Shown: piece after piece, positions 32,852 through 37,776 of the stretch
Layout: each line of letters starts with the position of its first letter
How positions within the stretch are numbered: position 1 is the stretch's first letter
Assembly: GCA_964450115.1 (NCBI GenBank)
Contig: CAYVCD010000001.1
Coordinates: forward strand, 8,410-72,409
Reading direction: 5' to 3'
DNA: 64,000 nucleotides
Source of the DNA: an uncultured Planctomycetia bacterium
GTDB lineage: Bacteria > Omnitrophota > Gorgyraeia > 2-01-FULL-45-10
Translations under genes and position numbers: made by a program
Notes under the pieces: model-generated
Database searches by the model: none
Told to the model about the DNA's origin: nothing
Seen by the model: the letters and a program-made list of their open reading frames with translations, nothing else

Positions 32852-33091
32852 ATGAAAGTATATATAAATACCGTTTTTGAGGAAGTCTACTCCGGAGATG
32901 CGAAAGAGGTGGTTCTCCCCGGCGACGAGGGAGAGCTGTCTTTAATGAATTTTCACCAACCTATCGTCTGCCGCCTCGCAAAAGGTACAGTCAGGATAAT
33001 CTTACCCCAAGGCGTCAAATCGATCCCCATAACAGACGGAATAGCGCACATGGAAGGCGATACGTTAAAGATAATGGCGGAGGTGGCTTAA
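32852..33091 (+). CDS. atpC: F-type ATPase epsilon subunit, truncated (beta-sandwich domain only, 79 aa)
   Basis: MKVYINTVFEEVYSGDAKEVVLPGDEGELSLMNFHQPIVCRLAKG… matches the epsilon N-terminal domain. No C-terminal helical hairpin. Confidence 0.65.
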   Translation: MKVYINTVFEEVYSGDAKEVVLPGDEGELSLMNFHQPIVCRLAKGTVRIILPQGVKSIPITDGIAHMEGDTLKIMAEVA

Positions 33092-33093
33092 GA

Positions 33094-33306
33094 ATGCTGC
33101 GTAACCTTACTATCATAATAATAATGTTCCTGAGTACATTCGGGCCCGCTGTGGTCATCGCTCTCGTCGGCTCTTCGGCTGTAAAGGCGGTGGGCAGGAA
33201 CCCCTCAGCTTCCGCCAGGATACTGTCCGCTATGATAATAGCGTTCATATTCGCGGAGGCGATAGCGGTGCTGGCGATCCTCATGGTATTTAATATATTC
33301 AAGTAA
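33094..33306 (+). CDS. atpE: F-type ATPase subunit c
   Basis: 70-aa two-helix proteolipid with the ion-binding carboxylate in IIAFIFAEAIAVLAIL. Confidence 0.8.
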   Translation: MLRNLTIIIIMFLSTFGPAVVIALVGSSAVKAVGRNPSASARILSAMIIAFIFAEAIAVLAILMVFNIFK

Positions 33307-33328
33307 CGTAAAGAAGGGGCCTTATATT

Positions 33329-34054: not shown

Positions 34055-35547
34055 TGGTATCCAAAACGAATATAGCCAGCCTCGATATACGCGAAGTGGG
34101 CGTGGTTAAGGAGCTGAAGCAGGGCATCGTAAAGGTCTCCGGGCTACCCTCCTGCATATTCGGGCAGCTTGTCGAGTTCAGCCGCGGCTCTAAAGGCATG
34201 GTGATGGGCTTTAACCTCGAAGAGGTGCTTATCATAGTGCTCGGTGACGACAGTCTCATAAATATGGGCGATACCGTAACGAGCCGCTCGGAACTATTGA
34301 GCGTGCCGGTAGGAGATAATTTTGCGGGCAGAGTTGTTGACTGCCTTGCCAGGCCCATCGACGGCAGGCCCGCCATAACAGCGACCGATCATTATCCGGT
34401 ATTCCGTGAGGCGCTTGGCGTCATGGAGAGAGAGCCGATAACCGTGCCGCTTCATACCGGGACGAAGATACTAGATCTTGTTATACCTATCGGCAAGGGG
34501 CAGAGAGAGCTCATCATAGGCGACCGTCAGACCGGCAAGACGAGTATAGCTATCGATGCCATACTCAGCCAAAAGGGCAGGAATGTCGTATGTGTCTACT
34601 GTTACATAGGCGGAAGTTATTCCGCTCTTAAGAAGACGATGAATCTCCTGAACGAGAAAGGCGCGCTATCTTACACTATAATAGTATGCGCTACCGCCTC
34701 GAGCACTCCGGCCGAGCAGTATCTGGTGCCTTATACCGCGGCAAGCCTCGGCGAATATTTCATGTTCAACGGAAAAGATTCTCTTGTAGTATTCGATGAC
34801 CTTACAAAACATGCATGGGCATACAGGCAGATATCGCTTCTTATGGAGCGGCCGCCCGGCAGAGAGGCGTATCCCGGTGACATATTCTATGTGCACTCAC
34901 AGCTGATGGAACGCGCCGGCAGGCTGCGCGCAGGACTTGGAGCAGGCACTATGACATTTTTGCCGATAGTGAATACTCTGCAGGGTGATATAACCGGATA
35001 TATACAATCGAACCTCGTCTCTATGACCGATGGACAGGTCTATTTGAGCTCGAACCTATTCTTTGAAGGCTTCAAACCAGCCATAGATCTCGGGCTATCC
35101 GTTTCGCGTATCGGCAGTAAGGTCCAGTCCGGCGCAATGCGATTTGCAAGTTCGGGCCTGAGGCTGCAGTACGCGCAGTACCGCGAATTGCAAAGGCTGA
35201 CCCGGCTGAGAACGAAGCTCTCCAAGGAAGCCATGAGCGATATAAAACGCGGCGAGACTTTAAGAGAGCTTTTGATACAGGAGAACGGAAGACCGTTAAG
35301 CCTGGCCGAGGAGATAGTGCTATTCTACGCGTTCAAGAAGAAGGTGCTCGAGATATTGAAGCCGGAGCTCTTGAAGACATTTAAGAAAGAGTTCTTCTCT
35401 TTTATTTGCAATACTAATCCGACGCTAGTAGATAAGATAGAGAAGGCAGAGGAGCTGACCGATGAGATCAGGGTCTCGCTCGATAAAGCGCTGATAAACT
35501 TTTTCCAGGACAGCAAAGAGGCCAGCAAGAATGATACCGCTCGCTGA
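34054..35547 (+). CDS. atpA: F-type ATPase alpha subunit
   Basis: P-loop GDRQTGKTSIAIDAIL. …AYRQISLLMERPPGREAYPGDIFYVHSQLMERA…. Confidence 0.9.
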   Translation: MVSKTNIASLDIREVGVVKELKQGIVKVSGLPSCIFGQLVEFSRGSKGMVMGFNLEEVLIIVLGDDSLINMGDTVTSRSELLSVPVGDNFAGRVVDCLARPIDGRPAITATDHYPVFREALGVMEREPITVPLHTGTKILDLVIPIGKGQRELIIGDRQTGKTSIAIDAILSQKGRNVVCVYCYIGGSYSALKKTMNLLNEKGALSYTIIVCATASSTPAEQYLVPYTAASLGEYFMFNGKDSLVVFDDLTKHAWAYRQISLLMERPPGREAYPGDIFYVHSQLMERAGRLRAGLGAGTMTFLPIVNTLQGDITGYIQSNLVSMTDGQVYLSSNLFFEGFKPAIDLGLSVSRIGSKVQSGAMRFASSGLRLQYAQYRELQRLTRLRTKLSKEAMSDIKRGETLRELLIQENGRPLSLAEEIVLFYAFKKKVLEILKPELLKTFKKEFFSFICNTNPTLVDKIEKAEELTDEIRVSLDKALINFFQDSKEASKNDTAR

Positions 35548-36385
35548 ATTAAAACAGGATCTCGATCTGAATAAGAGCTTGGGCTCGATCATAGAGACGA
35601 TGAAGACGGGCAGCGCGATACAGCTGAGGGAGTTCCAGACAAAAGCCCGCGCGTCGGACAAGCTCTTTTCTATGCTGCAGGACTGTTTCAGAACAATCGC
35701 GGAAAAAGGCTCCGTAAAGAATCCGCTATTCAACGGAGACAAGAACCTTCCGTCATGCATAATAGTGATAACTTCGGACGATGGTTTTGTAGGCGAGCTG
35801 AACACATTTATTATAAATACGGCGCTTGACCGGAAGGCGAGGGCCGATGATGAGATCGTGGTATTGGGCGAGCGGGGGGCCAACTTTTTTGAGGACAGGA
35901 ACGAGACTTTCACGGCATTTCCGGGCATCAGCGAAGATATTAAGCCTCTAGAGATAGCGGGGCTCAAGAGGCATATGATAAAGGGTTTCCTCGAAAAGAG
36001 GTTTGGCGCAGCGGTCGTGGTCTATCCGGAATCGTCAAATGTGGGTTCATGGAAGGTGAGCACGGCAGAACTTCTTCCTTTCAGGGAGAGCGTTATCTCC
36101 GACGGTACGCGGCCCATCATAGACGAGGAGTTGATCATAGAGCCTTCTGTGGAGAGCGTGGCTGAGGGGCTTGTGCATCTGTGGTTGAACGTGGCGCTCT
36201 ACAATATATTCTGGGCGAGCAAATTCTCTGAATTTGGAGCCAGGCTTATGCATCTGGAGGGCAGCGAACAGGAGCTTGTCCGCATGAAGCAGCAGCTATC
36301 TTTGCAATATTTTAAACATATCCATGCCGCGGCGGATACTACGATAAGAGAGATATTGAGCGCAAGGTTGGGGTTAAAATCATGA
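35531..36385 (+). CDS. atpG: F-type ATPase gamma subunit
   Basis: 284 aa in the gamma position between alpha and beta, with N- and C-terminal helices. Overlaps atpA by 17 nt. Confidence 0.65.
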
Positions 36386-37776
36386 CGAACAAAGGCAGGG
36401 TCATAGCGGTATCGGGTCCGGTAGTAGATGTGCAGTTCGAGAACCACGATTCGATGCCGGCCATCTACGAGGTGATGAGCCTCGATACATGCGAGGGTAA
36501 GCCGGTCGTCCTCGAGGCTGTAGAGCACAGAGACGAAAATGTCTGCCGGTGCATATCGCTTGCGCCCACATATGGCATACAGCGTAACTCTGTGGTTGAG
36601 TCTTCGGGGGAGTACCTTACGGTGCCGCATGCGAAGAATATATTCGGACGCATAGTGAATGTTCTGGGTCAGCCCATAGACGGCAAGGGGCCCGTAGACA
36701 GTTCCAGGCTCGTTCCGATCCGCAAAAAGACGAAGTCGGAAGTCATACATTCCGATGAAAATAAGCTCGATTCAAAATATGAGATAATGGAGACCGGCAT
36801 AAAGATCATAGACCTTCTCTTCCCGCTCATCAAAGGCTCGAAGACCGGCATCATAGGGGGCGCAGGCCTGGGTAAGAGTGTGCTCATATTGGAGATAATC
36901 CACAACATCATAACCAAAAGGCATGGAGCGTGCGTCTTTGCGGGCGTCGGAGAGCGTATCAGGGAAGGCAACGAGCTCTATTACGAATTTGTGAGGACCG
37001 GACTATTGGAACGCTCATGTCTCGTCTTCGGACAGATGAACGAGTCTCCGGGGGCGAGGTTCGAGGCCGCGAATACGGGAGTTACACTGGCGGAATCTCT
37101 GCAGGACGAGGGCGAGGATGTGCTATTCTTCATGGATAACGTATTCCGTTTCGCGCAGGCGGGCTGCGAGCTTTCGGCTCTATTGGGCAGAATCCCGTCG
37201 GAGACCGGGTACCAGCCGACCCTTACCACGGAGATAAGCCAATTCCATGAGCGCATCAGGTCACGTGAAGGGGCGAGTATTACGTCGGTGGAGGCCGTAT
37301 ACGTTCCGGCCGATGACCTGACAGATCCGGCAGTCGTAGCAATATTCACGCATCTCGATTCGATAATAACCCTCTCCCGCGCCTTTGTGCAGAAGGGGAT
37401 ATATCCGGCGATAAATCCGCTCGATTCGTCTTCAGGGTTTTTGGATGCCTCCATCATCGGCAAGAAGCATCTTGAGGTAGCGCAGGAGGTCTTAAGGCAT
37501 TTCCAGAAGTATGACGAACTACAGCGCATAGTCTCGATCGTAGGCAAAGAAGAGCTGTCGAAACAGGAGAGGGTGGTCTTCGACCGCGCGAAGAAGCTGC
37601 AGAACTTCCTGACACAATCTTTCTTTGTGGCGGAGGCATATACCGGAATGAAGGGTTCTTATGTTACGATAGAGAACACTATCAAAGGCTGCGAGAATAT
37701 CATCTCCGGCGCTCTAGATATGAAACCGGATGAGAAGTTCTATATGATAGGCGCCATTGAGGAAGCTTTAATATGA
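36382..37776 (+). CDS. atpD: F-type ATPase beta subunit (divergent P-loop GGAGLGKS)
   Basis: [25 protein letters not shown]-equivalent EELSKQE. …FFVAEAYTG… The stop overlaps the gspE ATG (ATGA). Confidence 0.9.

Follow-up and report, generated by a model that had tools for sequence, protein, structure and literature searches.

The 64 kb of Omnitrophota metagenome analysed here (the window) carries an F-type ATPase gene module that we read, as the most likely interpretation, as a member of the Omnitrophota "symbiotic" F-type ATPases and as probably an ATP-hydrolysing accessory rotary motor for a c-di-GMP-controlled secretion/pilus machine. Of the readings offered in the original prediction, recruitment of an F-ATPase to the secretion locus is the one that we favour: the module lies within a T2SS-like type IV filament operon, to which translational coupling partly ties it, and its embedding there is a conserved trait of Omnitrophota loci that extends to a distant sister clade.

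Organization of the locus

The original description of the locus holds in full. All six ORFs are present on the + strand between positions 32852 and 37776, in the order epsilon, c, b-delta (C-domain) fusion, alpha, gamma and beta (Table 1), and the Pfam assignments agree with the predicted order in which epsilon is first and beta last. The operon was also predicted to lie between a peptidase-like gene and T2SS inner-membrane genes, and its neighbours are indeed a Peptidase_MA_2 gene on the 5' side and PilB/GspE and PilC/GspF on the 3' side. The junctions are TAAATG at peptidase/epsilon, TAATG at b/alpha, a 17-nt overlap at alpha/gamma, and ATGA at both gamma/beta and beta/pilB, the last being the overlap of the beta stop with the gspE start that had been noted originally. 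The module is predicted to share its transcript with the genes of a giant surface protein, of a periplasmic metallopeptidase and of a c-di-GMP-binding PilB/GspE, as well as with the remaining T2SS-like type IV filament genes, and translational coupling appears to cover part of that gene chain.

Table 1. Features of the ATPase module and its neighbours in the window.
Feature	Position	Strand	Basis
Two secretins flanking an ExeA-like AAA_22 ATPase	9896..15104	+	PF00263 and PF03958 (both secretins), PF13401 (ATPase)
Giant 4250-aa Kelch protein, one N-terminal hydrophobic segment	18383..31135	+	
Conserved 264-aa bitopic protein, no Pfam match	31155..31949	+	homologues, AF2
Peptidase_MA_2 (HExxH), N-terminal hydrophobic segment, start codon uncertain	31949..32851	+	PF13485
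Epsilon, beta-sandwich N-domain only, 79 aa	32852..33091	+	ATP-synt_DE_N/PF02823, TIGR01216
c subunit, 70-aa hairpin	33094..33306	+	ATP-synt_C/PF00137
b-delta/OSCP C-domain peripheral-stalk fusion, 241 aa	33329..34054	+	ATP-synt_B/PF00430 and OSCP/PF00213
Alpha, 497 aa	34054..35547	+	NF009884
Gamma, 284 aa	35531..36385	+	PF00231
Beta, 464 aa	36382..37776	+	TIGR01039
PilB/GspE assembly ATPase, N-terminal c-di-GMP-binding MshEN motif	37773..39443	+	PF00437, PF05157
PilC/GspF platform protein	39501..40727	+	PF00482, two stretches
PilM-PilN fusion, PilO/GspM-like, two minor pseudopilins, GspK-like and GspG major pseudopilin, in order	40724..44906	+	Pfam, synteny

The F1 head

Alpha (NF009884, 571 bits against a cut-off of 554) and beta (TIGR01039, 568 bits against 463) score above the canonical atpA/atpD cut-offs, whereas gamma, c, b and epsilon are each below their equivalog cut-offs. 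Gamma is full length and divergent, with PF00231 matching residues 4-277 (profile positions 2-280 of 285) and TIGR01146 scoring 85.6 bits against 194. The P-loop (GDRQTGKT) and Arg finger (SVSRIG) of alpha are intact, as are all catalytic motifs of beta ([23 protein letters not shown] and [10 protein letters not shown]). The beta P-loop is GGAGLGKS rather than GGAGVGKT, as first read, and conforms to a family-wide pattern of GGA[GA][LC]GK[ST]. The alpha3beta3 head is predicted to be catalytically competent.

The published assignment of such ATPases to "type 2/3" would make the module a relative of the Mycoplasma Type 2/Type 3 "F1-like X0" ATPases, which we consider very improbable. Seymour et al. 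(PMC10066038) report that the alpha subunit clusters there, and the ATPases of both groups are accessory and tied to surface machinery, but the label is not borne out by the HMM or PDB scores of this module, which point to canonical F1 instead: NF045863, NF045858, NF045936 and NF045934 each score lower than both their own cut-offs and the canonical models, and beta scores 440-487 bits against canonical F1 structures and 359 against the M. mobile G1-ATPase beta (9io5_A).

Epsilon, rotor and stalk

Epsilon was predicted to be a 79-aa protein without the inhibitory C-terminal helices, and the helical hairpin is absent by three comparisons: PF02823 (ATP-synt_DE_N) spans residues 1-79 (E 3e-15), the TIGR01216 match is confined to positions 2-81 of the 130-position model, and the protein aligns with residues 14-84 of the 139 of E. 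coli epsilon. Homologues in 10 other loci (75-98 aa) all lack these helices too.

The c subunit (PF00137, 36.6 bits against a cut-off of 24; E 6e-9) has an RNP loop (R35-N36-P37) and a helix-2 carboxylate, E55, spaced 20 residues from R35 as R41 and D61 are in E. coli. The helix-1 Gly motif is largely lost. Among 13 family members, those of the distant clade included, R35, N36 and E55 do not vary. Inspection of the ion-binding motif, for which Na+ specificity had been raised, found neither Na+ ligands nor a second Glu in this sequence.

The predicted fusion of b to a delta-like domain is borne out by matches to ATP-synt_B (PF00430, residues 6-134) and OSCP (PF00213, residues 149-231) within a single ORF, the latter limited to profile positions 86-167 of 172, which is the delta C-terminal domain only. 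The b part consists of a TM helix and a helix of ~110 residues. An AF2 model (pLDDT 87.7) superimposes in Foldseek on delta/OSCP C-domains with an rmsd of 1.3-1.5 A and gives a weak match to FliH (5b0o_F). The peripheral stalk looks like a single V/A-type-E-like stalk in which b is fused to the delta C-domain. The fusion family is large, with 293 cluster representatives (50% identity clusters) at E<=1e-30, and among the 150 matches listed most are full-length proteins of ~240 aa. Alpha in turn is short of the ~15-20 N-terminal residues to which the delta N-domain binds: its NF009884 alignment begins at model position 24 and its residue 2 aligns with E. coli alpha residue 16. The loss is thus coordinated, with neither the delta N-domain nor its binding peptide on alpha present.

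The fusion recalls the N-ATPases (atpDCQRBEFAG; Dibrova et al. 2010, PMC2881411), and the suggestion of an N-ATPase-like enzyme holds in part, as a resemblance. In both, b is fused to the delta C-terminal region with no separate delta (atpH), the c-b-alpha-gamma order is shared as a cyclic permutation, the TIGR03321 b model is matched by the module over its full length, if weakly and below threshold, and the module would, like N-ATPases, be an accessory and possibly a second ATPase; N-ATPases are predicted not to synthesise ATP (PMC2881411). Membership is not supported. All four N-ATPase models are far below their cut-offs (TIGR03305, 492 against 752 bits; TIGR03324, 526 against 750; TIGR03323, 50 against 282; TIGR03321, 42 against 225), and the a subunit, AtpQ, AtpR and the Na+-binding c with two Glu that N-ATPases have are all lacking. 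A laterally transferred, Na+-pumping N-ATPase that has lost atpQ, atpR and atpB is a highly unlikely origin.

Absence of an a subunit

No match to PF00119 (a subunit) was found among + strand ORFs of at least 120 aa in the window, a scan that covered all of them apart from a nested ORF at 45344-45733 and, in the giant ORF, residues 1-1206. Among the ORFs of 60 aa or more on both strands of the window, none shows an a-like multi-pass hydropathy profile, and tblastn with E. coli AtpB against the window and 19 related loci returned nothing (best E-value 2.3). The a-subunit gene is thus missing from the window, as originally stated, and none was found in ~16 homologous loci, read with their flanks or over the part held by shorter contigs. 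Nor was a partner with a conserved intramembrane Arg found in the operon. With the a subunit absent, the module has no recognisable ion path.

A different explanation, which we regard as rather unlikely, is a bioenergetic F1Fo enzyme, proton-pumping or ATP-making, with a split operon and an a subunit encoded elsewhere in the genome; its placement here could be understood since both ATP and proton-motive force are needed for type II secretion and for pilus assembly. In its favour, PMF is reportedly required by the T2SS, in which GspF may act as an ion channel (PMC10790770), conservation of the c-ring Glu and RNP loop is strict, no part of the rotor or stalk is missing, alpha and beta pass canonical cut-offs, and our data are a 64-kb window and locus flanks rather than whole genomes. 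Against this, seven other parts occur together in ~16 loci from very divergent lineages and a is never among them, and the missing delta N-domain, alpha N-terminus and epsilon C-domain are atypical of a synthase. Many Omnitrophota already have V/A-type ATPases: a V-type ATP synthase is reported for Ace Lake Omnitrophota (PMC8542988), and V/A-type subunits in 70-99% of most Gorgyraeia complete genomes (bioRxiv 10.64898/2026.06.07.730766). In the source data of Seymour et al. (PMC10066038), one MAG has the alpha and beta KOs (K02111 and K02112) without the a-subunit KO (K02108).

Recurrence across Omnitrophota

Related loci were read with +/-10 kb flanks. The string of giant Kelch/Laminin-G protein, 264-aa bitopic protein, Peptidase_MA, eps-c-b/delta-alpha-gamma-beta and PilB-PilC-PilMN-PilO-pseudopilins is seen, whole or over the part held by shorter contigs, in ~16 independent loci that span beta identities of 55-98% and include a distant sister clade with a duplicated alpha and only 27-31% b-delta identity. 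Because it is found again in ~16 independent contigs, the arrangement is far beyond chance. In every locus that reaches past beta (~10), pilB follows directly, except in L003, where a response-regulator gene intervenes; the ATGA overlap of beta and pilB is present in this window and in L005. What is observed directly is the machinery, the stoichiometric linkage of its genes and the fact that it is conserved.

The absent a subunit and truncated epsilon and delta could also suggest a decaying atp operon remnant that lies beside a pilus cluster by chance, but this is effectively refuted by the family-wide conservation, and we give it almost no weight. The ORFs are all intact and keep all catalytic residues, the same truncations and gene order persist down to 55% beta identity, c is 50-100% identical across the family, and the only ORF that looks truncated, in L003, does so where a run of Ns lies in the assembly.

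Neighbouring secretion and pilus genes

The PilB ORF scores slightly below the cut-offs of both the PilB and the GspE models, and its c-di-GMP motif (NF053729) scores 62.5 bits against a cut-off of 38. The third hydrophobic segment of PilC has a Glu, E378, that all 11 homologues compared share and that may be a counterpart of the PulF channel Glu described in PMC10790770. The secretins and ExeA-like ATPase are the outer-membrane part of the same apparatus.

Peptidase_MA_2 also lies 5' of epsilon in L004, L005, L006, L008, L009 and L020; it is 3' of PilC in L014 and L015, and missing from the otherwise complete L019. A REC-GGDEF gene is immediately 5' of epsilon in L007, L008, L009, L011, L012 and L020. 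The 264-aa protein comprises a signal/TM helix, a beta-sandwich, a 3-helix bundle, a C-terminal TM and an acidic tail (AF2 pLDDT 81.6), and its model matches no PDB fold. It has 221 homologues; the organism-named ones (~14 among the 120 listed) are all from Omnitrophota or a 'PVC group' MAG, and none of the matches listed carries an informative annotation. The sister clade has this protein in duplicate, and L016 has it as a GGDEF fusion. Homologous giant ORFs are upstream in L004, L005, L006, L008, L009, L014, L015, L016, L017 and L019; giant-protein homologues in related loci also bear Laminin_G_3/DUF2341 domains, and conservation of the C-terminal part reaches as far as the distant clade. 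The giant Kelch protein is likely a cargo or surface adhesin of the system.

Discussion

The association of these ATPases with pili is already known, since Seymour et al. (2023, Nat Microbiol; PMC10066038) described "symbiotic" non-respiratory F-type ATPases beside type-4a pilus clusters in Omnitrophota, co-located with T4aP in 57/66 contigs. The window is a further example: it comes from the same phylum, has F-type alpha and beta directly beside PilB/PilC/PilMNO, is likewise read as non-respiratory, and matches a system with giant ORFs in the same genomes. That system is defined there by alpha/beta phylogeny and co-location; in the main text and the supplementary parts consulted, we found no description of the anatomy with c and b-delta retained, a absent, epsilon short and the alpha N-terminus lost, of an operon shared with the giant gene, Peptidase_MA and the 264-aa protein, or of a sister clade with two alpha paralogues.

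Several systems offer comparisons. The module has in common with canonical bacterial F1Fo the gamma subunit, the N-domain of epsilon, a c subunit that bears the RNP loop and carboxylate, and a b stalk; the canonical enzyme differs in having a, the delta N-domain, the alpha N-terminal peptide and the epsilon C-domain, and in lacking the order eps-c-b/delta-alpha-gamma-beta embedded in a secretion operon. The Mycoplasma F1-like X0 enzymes (the Type 2 gliding motor G1-ATPase and the MIB-MIP-associated Type 3) are likewise accessory F1-derived ATPases, alongside or instead of the bioenergetic enzyme, and dedicated to a surface machine with a binding protein and a protease among its components. Their clusters lack c, b and delta and encode unrelated 3-TM and 12-TM X0 membrane proteins, whereas in the Omnitrophota module a genuine c-ring is retained together with a b-delta stalk, and its scores fall under the family cut-offs. 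The type III secretion/flagellar export complex (FliI6-FliJ-FliH) is also a rotary-ATPase derivative recruited to a protein-export machine, in which FliH is described, in PMC3665681 and by Pallen 2006 as cited in PMC2881411, as a b-plus-delta-like stalk protein and FliJ as gamma-like. Unlike that complex, the module has a true alpha/beta heterohexamer, full gamma, epsilon and a c-ring, and its companion machine is of the type II/type IV filament class with its own PilB ATPase. HMMs for FliI/SctN are far below their cut-offs.

In the accessory-motor reading, the module would not serve as the cell's ATP synthase and would run in the hydrolysis direction, as a rotary motor or energiser of the secretion/pilus machine. 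The b-delta stalk and c-ring would hold the F1 head to the inner membrane, and loss of the epsilon inhibitory helices may remove a brake on hydrolysis. This is consistent with the apparently intact anatomy and catalytic residues, with coordinated, family-wide losses (epsilon C-terminal helices, delta N-domain, alpha N-terminal peptide) that a housekeeping synthase would presumably not tolerate, with the size of the b-delta family, and with putative c-di-GMP wiring through the PilB MshEN motif and the REC-GGDEF genes near epsilon. By analogy, the Mycoplasma Type 3 F1-like X0 ATPase, required for the surface MIB-MIP binding/protease system (PMC12994834), may be a functional precedent. Some points weigh against it: the invariant membrane Glu of c is expected if ion translocation against an a-type stator persists, alpha and beta exceed curated canonical cut-offs, and no partner bearing a conserved intramembrane Arg was found in the operon as a rotor load. 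The Omnitrophota bacterium carries, at this locus, a complete-looking rotary F-type ATPase without a proton-channel subunit, wired into a pilus/secretion and giant-surface-protein operon, an arrangement known in the phylum since 2023.

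Organization of the ATPase–pilus locus

All real genes in the window lie on the forward strand and form one long apparatus locus (see the table). The six ATPase ORFs were found by ORF listing and Pfam at the positions given in the original prediction, all on the + strand, and the module sits as described between a peptidase gene (Peptidase_MA_2, upstream) and the T2SS inner-membrane genes PilB/GspE and PilC/GspF (downstream). The genes are closely packed, with junctions of TAAATG between the peptidase stop and the epsilon start, TAATG between b and alpha, and ATGA between gamma and beta, and with a 17-nt overlap of alpha and gamma; the reported ATGA overlap of the beta stop with the pilB start was evident on reading the junction. 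No intrinsic terminators were found within the operon on the + strand. A 26-nt perfect palindrome, GTAGGGCAGGTTTAAACCTGCCCTAC, present as a single copy in the window, is located at 39460–39485 inside the 57-nt pilB–pilC gap, and may constitute an mRNA processing or stability hairpin between the ATPase–pilB block and the platform genes.

Coordinates of features in the window and in homologous loci (L007–L020; L014–L017 are from a distant sister clade)
Feature	Position	Strand	Evidence or remark
Two secretins flanking an ExeA-like AAA_22 ATPase	9896-15104	+
Three TPR proteins, then Y1-transposase-like ORF	downstream of secretins	+
Giant 4250-aa Kelch-repeat protein	18383-31135	+	one N-terminal hydrophobic segment
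264-aa protein, Peptidase_MA_2, ATPase genes	successive, after giant gene (264-aa protein, 31155-31949)	+	264-aa protein without Pfam match
epsilon	32852-33091	+	ATP-synt_DE_N; Pfam match spans all 79 aa
c	33094-33306	+	ATP-synt_C (Pfam)
b-delta	33329-34054	+	ATP-synt_B, residues 6-134; OSCP/delta C-terminal half, residues 149-231
alpha	34054-35547	+	Pfam
gamma	35531-36385	+	Pfam
beta	36382-37776	+	Pfam
PilB/GspE, PilC/GspF, PilM-PilN fusion, PilO/GspM-like	successive, after beta	+
Two minor pseudopilins, GspK-like, GspG major pseudopilin	end of pilus genes	+
REC-GGDEF	L007 1634-2515; L008 8640-9515; L009 8569-9444
REC-GGDEF	L011 2249-3121; L012 1822-2694; L020 11715-12590
Counterparts of 264-aa protein	L014 4898-6391; L015 1484-2956; L016 1807-3684
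Tandem alpha paralogues beside one beta	L014 6496-9451; L016 4930-7977; L017 6315-9243

PilB scores just under both the PilB and the GspE cut-offs and the window contains no PilT; the most fitting name for the machine is a T2SS-like type IV filament system. Two near-identical AT-rich palindromes, TACTTTAAGTAATTAC (9647–9670) and TGTACTTTAAGTAATTA (11642–11669), precede the first secretin gene and the AAA_22 (ExeA-like) gene, respectively, and may represent a shared operator. An IS200-like Y1 transposase domain is present in a 332-aa ORF (17374–18372) directly upstream of the giant gene, whose homologues in related loci also contain Laminin_G_3/DUF2341 domains. Downstream of the pilus genes, a pair of large paralogues (1455 and 947 aa; 46432–53889) is encoded, each with an N-terminal transmembrane segment and without Pfam domains, an arrangement retained in the homologous locus L004 (18645–21392). 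These are followed at 53927–61001 by a cluster of oxidative-stress genes coding for an Rrf2 regulator, ferredoxin, hybrid-cluster protein, flavin reductase, a flavodiiron-like protein (ODP plus flavodoxin), rubrerythrin/ferritin, desulfoferrodoxin and a thioredoxin-reductase-like flavoprotein, indicating a strict anaerobe.

Anatomy of the ATPase subunits

The alpha and beta subunits retain the catalytic hallmarks of F1. The beta P-loop is GGAGLGKS, as originally noted, and conforms to a family pattern of GGA[GA][LC]GK[ST] in which the Walker A Lys-Ser/Thr is intact; the catalytic GERxREG motif and the Walker B Asp are kept in beta, as are GDRQTGKT and the SVSRIG arginine finger in alpha. Identities to the E. 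coli subunits are 37% (alpha) and 45% (beta), and both pass the cut-offs of canonical models (571 vs 554 for alpha with NF009884, the atpA model; 568 vs 463 for beta with TIGR01039, the atpD model). Gamma is full length and divergent, scoring 85.6 against an equivalog cut-off of 194.5 bits (TIGR01146), and epsilon (51.2 vs 67.3), c (26.2 vs 44) and b (44.8 vs 65.5) are likewise below their cut-offs. Together the subunits include a complete F1, with a catalytic competence that is predicted from its motifs.

The Pfam match covers the whole of the 79-aa epsilon, which therefore consists of the beta-sandwich domain only, in keeping with the claim that the inhibitory C-terminal helices are missing; the helical hairpin, which inhibits hydrolysis in canonical bacterial enzymes, is absent from each of the 11 loci examined.

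Fusion of b to a delta-like domain was also borne out, with ATP-synt_B and the OSCP C-terminal half (profile positions 86–167 of 172) in one ORF. An AlphaFold2 model (pLDDT 87.7) has a helix at residues 2–134, a short helix, and an alpha/beta domain that superposes on the delta/OSCP C-terminal domain at 1.3–1.5 Å (Foldseek). Over its full length the protein also matches the V-ATPase E subunit and FliH in Foldseek, though more weakly. No separate full-length delta was found by Pfam, HMM, AlphaFold2 and Foldseek, and only the delta C-domain, fused to b, is present. In E. coli the N-terminal peptide of alpha binds the delta N-domain; the alpha subunit here starts about 15–20 residues later than canonical alphas and therefore lacks this peptide, and the joint loss of the delta N-domain and of its alpha partner argues for a genuinely remodelled stator. 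The module also retains the rotor components by which F1 docks to a c-ring, together with a membrane-anchored, E-like stalk.

Few proteins of the module are as well conserved as the c subunit (50–100% identity), with an invariant RNP loop and helix-2 Glu55, and an Arg-to-Glu spacing of 20 residues, the same as E. coli R41–D61. With regard to Na+ versus H+ specificity, its ion-binding motif contains none of the Na+ ligands: the helix-2 sequence is FAEAIAVLA, and Glu and Gln are both missing from helix 1. The helix-1 glycine motif is mostly lost.

Search for an a subunit

Rotary F-type ATPases are chemiosmotic machines, and ion coupling depends strictly on their a subunit. Its absence from the 64-kb window, part of the original prediction, was upheld by Pfam, hydropathy and tblastn. 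No PF00119 match was obtained in a scan of all + strand ORFs of at least 120 aa except the nested ORF 45344–45733, with the giant ORF represented by its first 1206 aa, and no a-like multi-pass protein was seen among ORFs of at least 60 aa on either strand of the window. E. coli AtpB and AtpI gave no tblastn match to the window or to 19 loci, although this is a weak test. An a subunit with the stator Arg is absent from the window and from about 16 related loci, for which the search extended to ±10 kb flanks; in the supplements of a 2026 preprint (bioRxiv 10.64898/2026.06.07.730766) and of Seymour et al. 2023 (PMC10066038), the available rows on K02108 (atpB) counts are anecdotal.

A substitute for the a-subunit Arg was not apparent either, since no conserved intramembrane Arg/Lys occurs in the conserved membrane proteins of the operon; the search yielded nothing beyond boundary residues and the almost invariant Gln9 of the b helix. 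We examined the 264-aa protein as a possible analogue of the a subunit and discarded it, given its bitopic topology and its beta-sandwich and helical bundle on the periplasmic side.

An alternative explanation is that the a subunit is encoded elsewhere in a split operon and that the complex still moves ions. The main argument for this is the invariant c-ring Glu, and such a pump might supply the proton-motive force reportedly needed by type II secretion (PMC10790770); with no a gene in the window or the flanks of the related loci, we regard this explanation as possible but rather unlikely.

Conservation across Omnitrophota and a sister clade

The window beta shares 98% identity with a protein from a "Candidatus Omnitrophica/Omnitrophota" MAG and is also found on Logan metagenome contigs. 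We read the genomic contexts of homologues of beta, b-delta and the 264-aa protein. The pilB-linked context was present in 8 of the 8 beta homologues read, from about 70 close ones (at least 64% identity), and in all of the b-delta relatives found. A b-delta profile matched 293 representatives of 50% identity clusters at E≤1e-30, mostly about 240 aa in length among the 150 matches listed; closer alignment with narrow search patterns gave 8 genome loci. The gene string recurs, whole or over the stretch held by shorter contigs, in loci L004–L012 (including the LacPavin MAG JAPLMH010000018.1, L006) and L018–L020. It comprises the giant ORF, the 264-aa protein, usually Peptidase_MA and sometimes a REC-GGDEF diguanylate cyclase, followed by eps-c-b/delta-alpha-gamma-beta and then PilB-PilC-PilMN-PilO-pseudopilins, and the betas are 58–98% identical to that of the window. 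Operonic coupling of the ATPase to PilB is conserved.

The distant clade comprises four loci (L014–L017, the last from a MAG labelled Lentisphaerae), with b-delta proteins 27–31% identical to the window b-delta and betas 55–57% identical, the latter readable in L014 and L015 only. Its parts include a giant Laminin-G protein, the 264-aa protein in duplicated form, epsilon, c, b-delta, gamma, beta, PilB, PilC, Peptidase_MA and GspG. Two tandem alpha paralogues lie beside a single beta in L014, L016 and L017, and the paralogue read at each has a GDRMTGKT P-loop; the gene order is alpha-alpha'-eps-c-b/delta-gamma-beta in L014 and L017, and eps-c-b/delta-alpha-alpha' in L016. No a subunit is encoded in L004–L012, L018–L020 or the distant-clade loci.

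The complete genome CP070797.1 (GCA_020343495.1) has an alpha gene split between L003 (~8250–8350) and L020 (13882–14660), 300 kb apart. We rejected decay as the cause because the truncation in L003 coincides with an assembly N-run, and the split is probably a mis-assembly or an inversion through the operon.

Associated proteins and c-di-GMP

The 264-aa protein is composed of a signal/TM helix, a beta-sandwich, a 3-helix bundle, a C-terminal TM segment and an acidic/Lys-rich tail, without a match to PDB folds or Pfam. It is internally duplicated in the distant clade, and its counterpart in L016 is fused to a cytoplasmic GGDEF domain, which suggests that the protein acts in the periplasm as a sensor or a module for binding a partner. 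The C-terminal ~400–800 aa of the giant protein are its sole part conserved in the distant clade (21–26% identity; L014–L017), and the proteins end in a common WFE motif (WFEYK in the window, WFEME in L015); this part may dock to the secretion machine.

In many relatives a ~290-aa REC-GGDEF diguanylate cyclase is encoded immediately upstream of epsilon; the window lacks this gene. PilB carries an N-terminal MshEN c-di-GMP-binding motif scoring above cut-off, and c-di-GMP input is seen in this motif and in the relatives' REC-GGDEF genes and GGDEF fusions near epsilon.

Comparison with known systems

The association of an ATPase with pilus genes is already known. Seymour et al. 2023 (PMC10066038), in the portions available, named a "symbiotic" type-2/3 F-type ATPase and reported its co-location within 10 kb of type-4 pilus genes in 57 of 66 contigs, with all classes represented. 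The window module shares the Omnitrophota origin of this sF-ATPase/T4aP locus and its arrangement of F-type alpha/beta no more than 10 kb from a type-4 pilus cluster, as beta overlaps pilB and PilC, PilMN, PilO and the pseudopilins lie downstream. T2SS-like loci beside Omnitrophota giant genes were described by West-Roberts et al. (bioRxiv 2023.11.21.568195), the available parts of which do not mention an ATPase. Neither the subunit composition and missing a subunit, nor a single operon of giant gene, peptidase, ATPase and pilus genes, is described in the available text and supplementary parts of these two papers; the subunit anatomy and the wider conserved module extend the known picture.

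The suggested resemblance to N-ATPases stands in part. The module shares with them the fusion of a long b to the delta C-terminal region without atpH (PMC2881411), and the c-b-alpha-gamma gene order. Membership itself is not supported, with scores of 492, 526, 50 and 42 against cut-offs of 752, 750, 282 and 225 bits for TIGR03305, TIGR03324, TIGR03323 and TIGR03321 respectively, and no atpQ, atpR or atpB; the N-ATPase operon is atpDCQRBEFAG with AtpQ, AtpR and a, whereas the module is eps-c-b/delta-alpha-gamma-beta without Q, R or a, and the N-ATPase c has the full Na+ ligand set (helix-1 Glu/Gln, ESTxxY) of which the module c has none.

We also rejected membership in the Mycoplasma type 2/3 ATPases, for which NF045863, NF045858, NF045936 and NF045934 score 430, 438, 322 and 394 against 600, 850, 520 and 570 bits, all four below the canonical-model scores; beta matches the M. 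mobile G1-ATPase beta (PDB) at 359 bits and canonical F1 structures at 440–487 bits. The Mycoplasma enzymes are seven-gene clusters with unrelated membrane proteins (3 and 12 TM) and without c or b, whereas the module has a genuine c and b-delta and no 12-TM protein. The Mycoplasma Type 3 F1-like X0 ATPase is needed for the surface MIB-MIP binding/protease system (PMC12994834), and by analogy provides a strong functional parallel for the module. Identity with the homohexameric FliI/SctN of T3SS/flagella was rejected likewise, with best scores of 183–208 bits against cut-offs of 380–620 and with distinct alpha and beta genes.

Possible function and significance

Because there is neither an epsilon brake nor an a subunit, the enzyme would be expected to run as an ATPase, in the hydrolysis direction. 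We favour, with moderate confidence, the interpretation that it is an accessory enzyme energising the secretion/pilus machine and not the cellular ATP synthase, a role that V/A-type enzymes are reported to fill in many Omnitrophota in the available parts of PMC8542988 and bioRxiv 10.64898/2026.06.07.730766.

A more specific and rather doubtful proposal is that the a-less complex is coupled to the machine mechanically, not chemiosmotically. ATP-driven rotation of gamma, epsilon and the c-ring, held against a b-delta stator docked to the platform, would perform work either on the platform of the type II secretion/type IV filament machine or on export of the giant adhesin, and the c-ring carboxylate might engage a TM partner such as b helix Gln9, PilC or the pseudopilin N-termini. 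If so, a rotary ATPase would have been recruited to a protein-export nanomachine for a second time, after and independently of T3SS FliI/FliH/FliJ, and would be seen here at a stage at which the c-ring and peripheral stalk are retained; the conserved c-ring carboxylate would have a new role. If the enzyme works without a, it would represent a new use of rotary torque and shed light on the origin of FliI/FliH/FliJ from rotary enzymes.

In this large conserved family F1, the c-ring and the stalk are kept while the a subunit is missing from the operon, and its genes are tied to those for a secretion/pilus apparatus and a giant adhesin; the bacteria concerned are ultra-small and probably host-dependent. 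Since gamma, c, b and epsilon do not reach curated cut-offs, reconstructions call the module an "F-type ATP synthase" or "incomplete F1Fo". Among 176 complete Omnitrophota genomes, the available parts of the 2026 preprint (bioRxiv 10.64898/2026.06.07.730766) list F1Fo alpha/beta for 125 and gamma for only 30; we suggest that this shortfall is probably a threshold artefact, not a true absence, because the divergent gamma lies under the TIGR01146 threshold. A secretion-accessory identity for the module would alter the bioenergetic inferences drawn for Omnitrophota.
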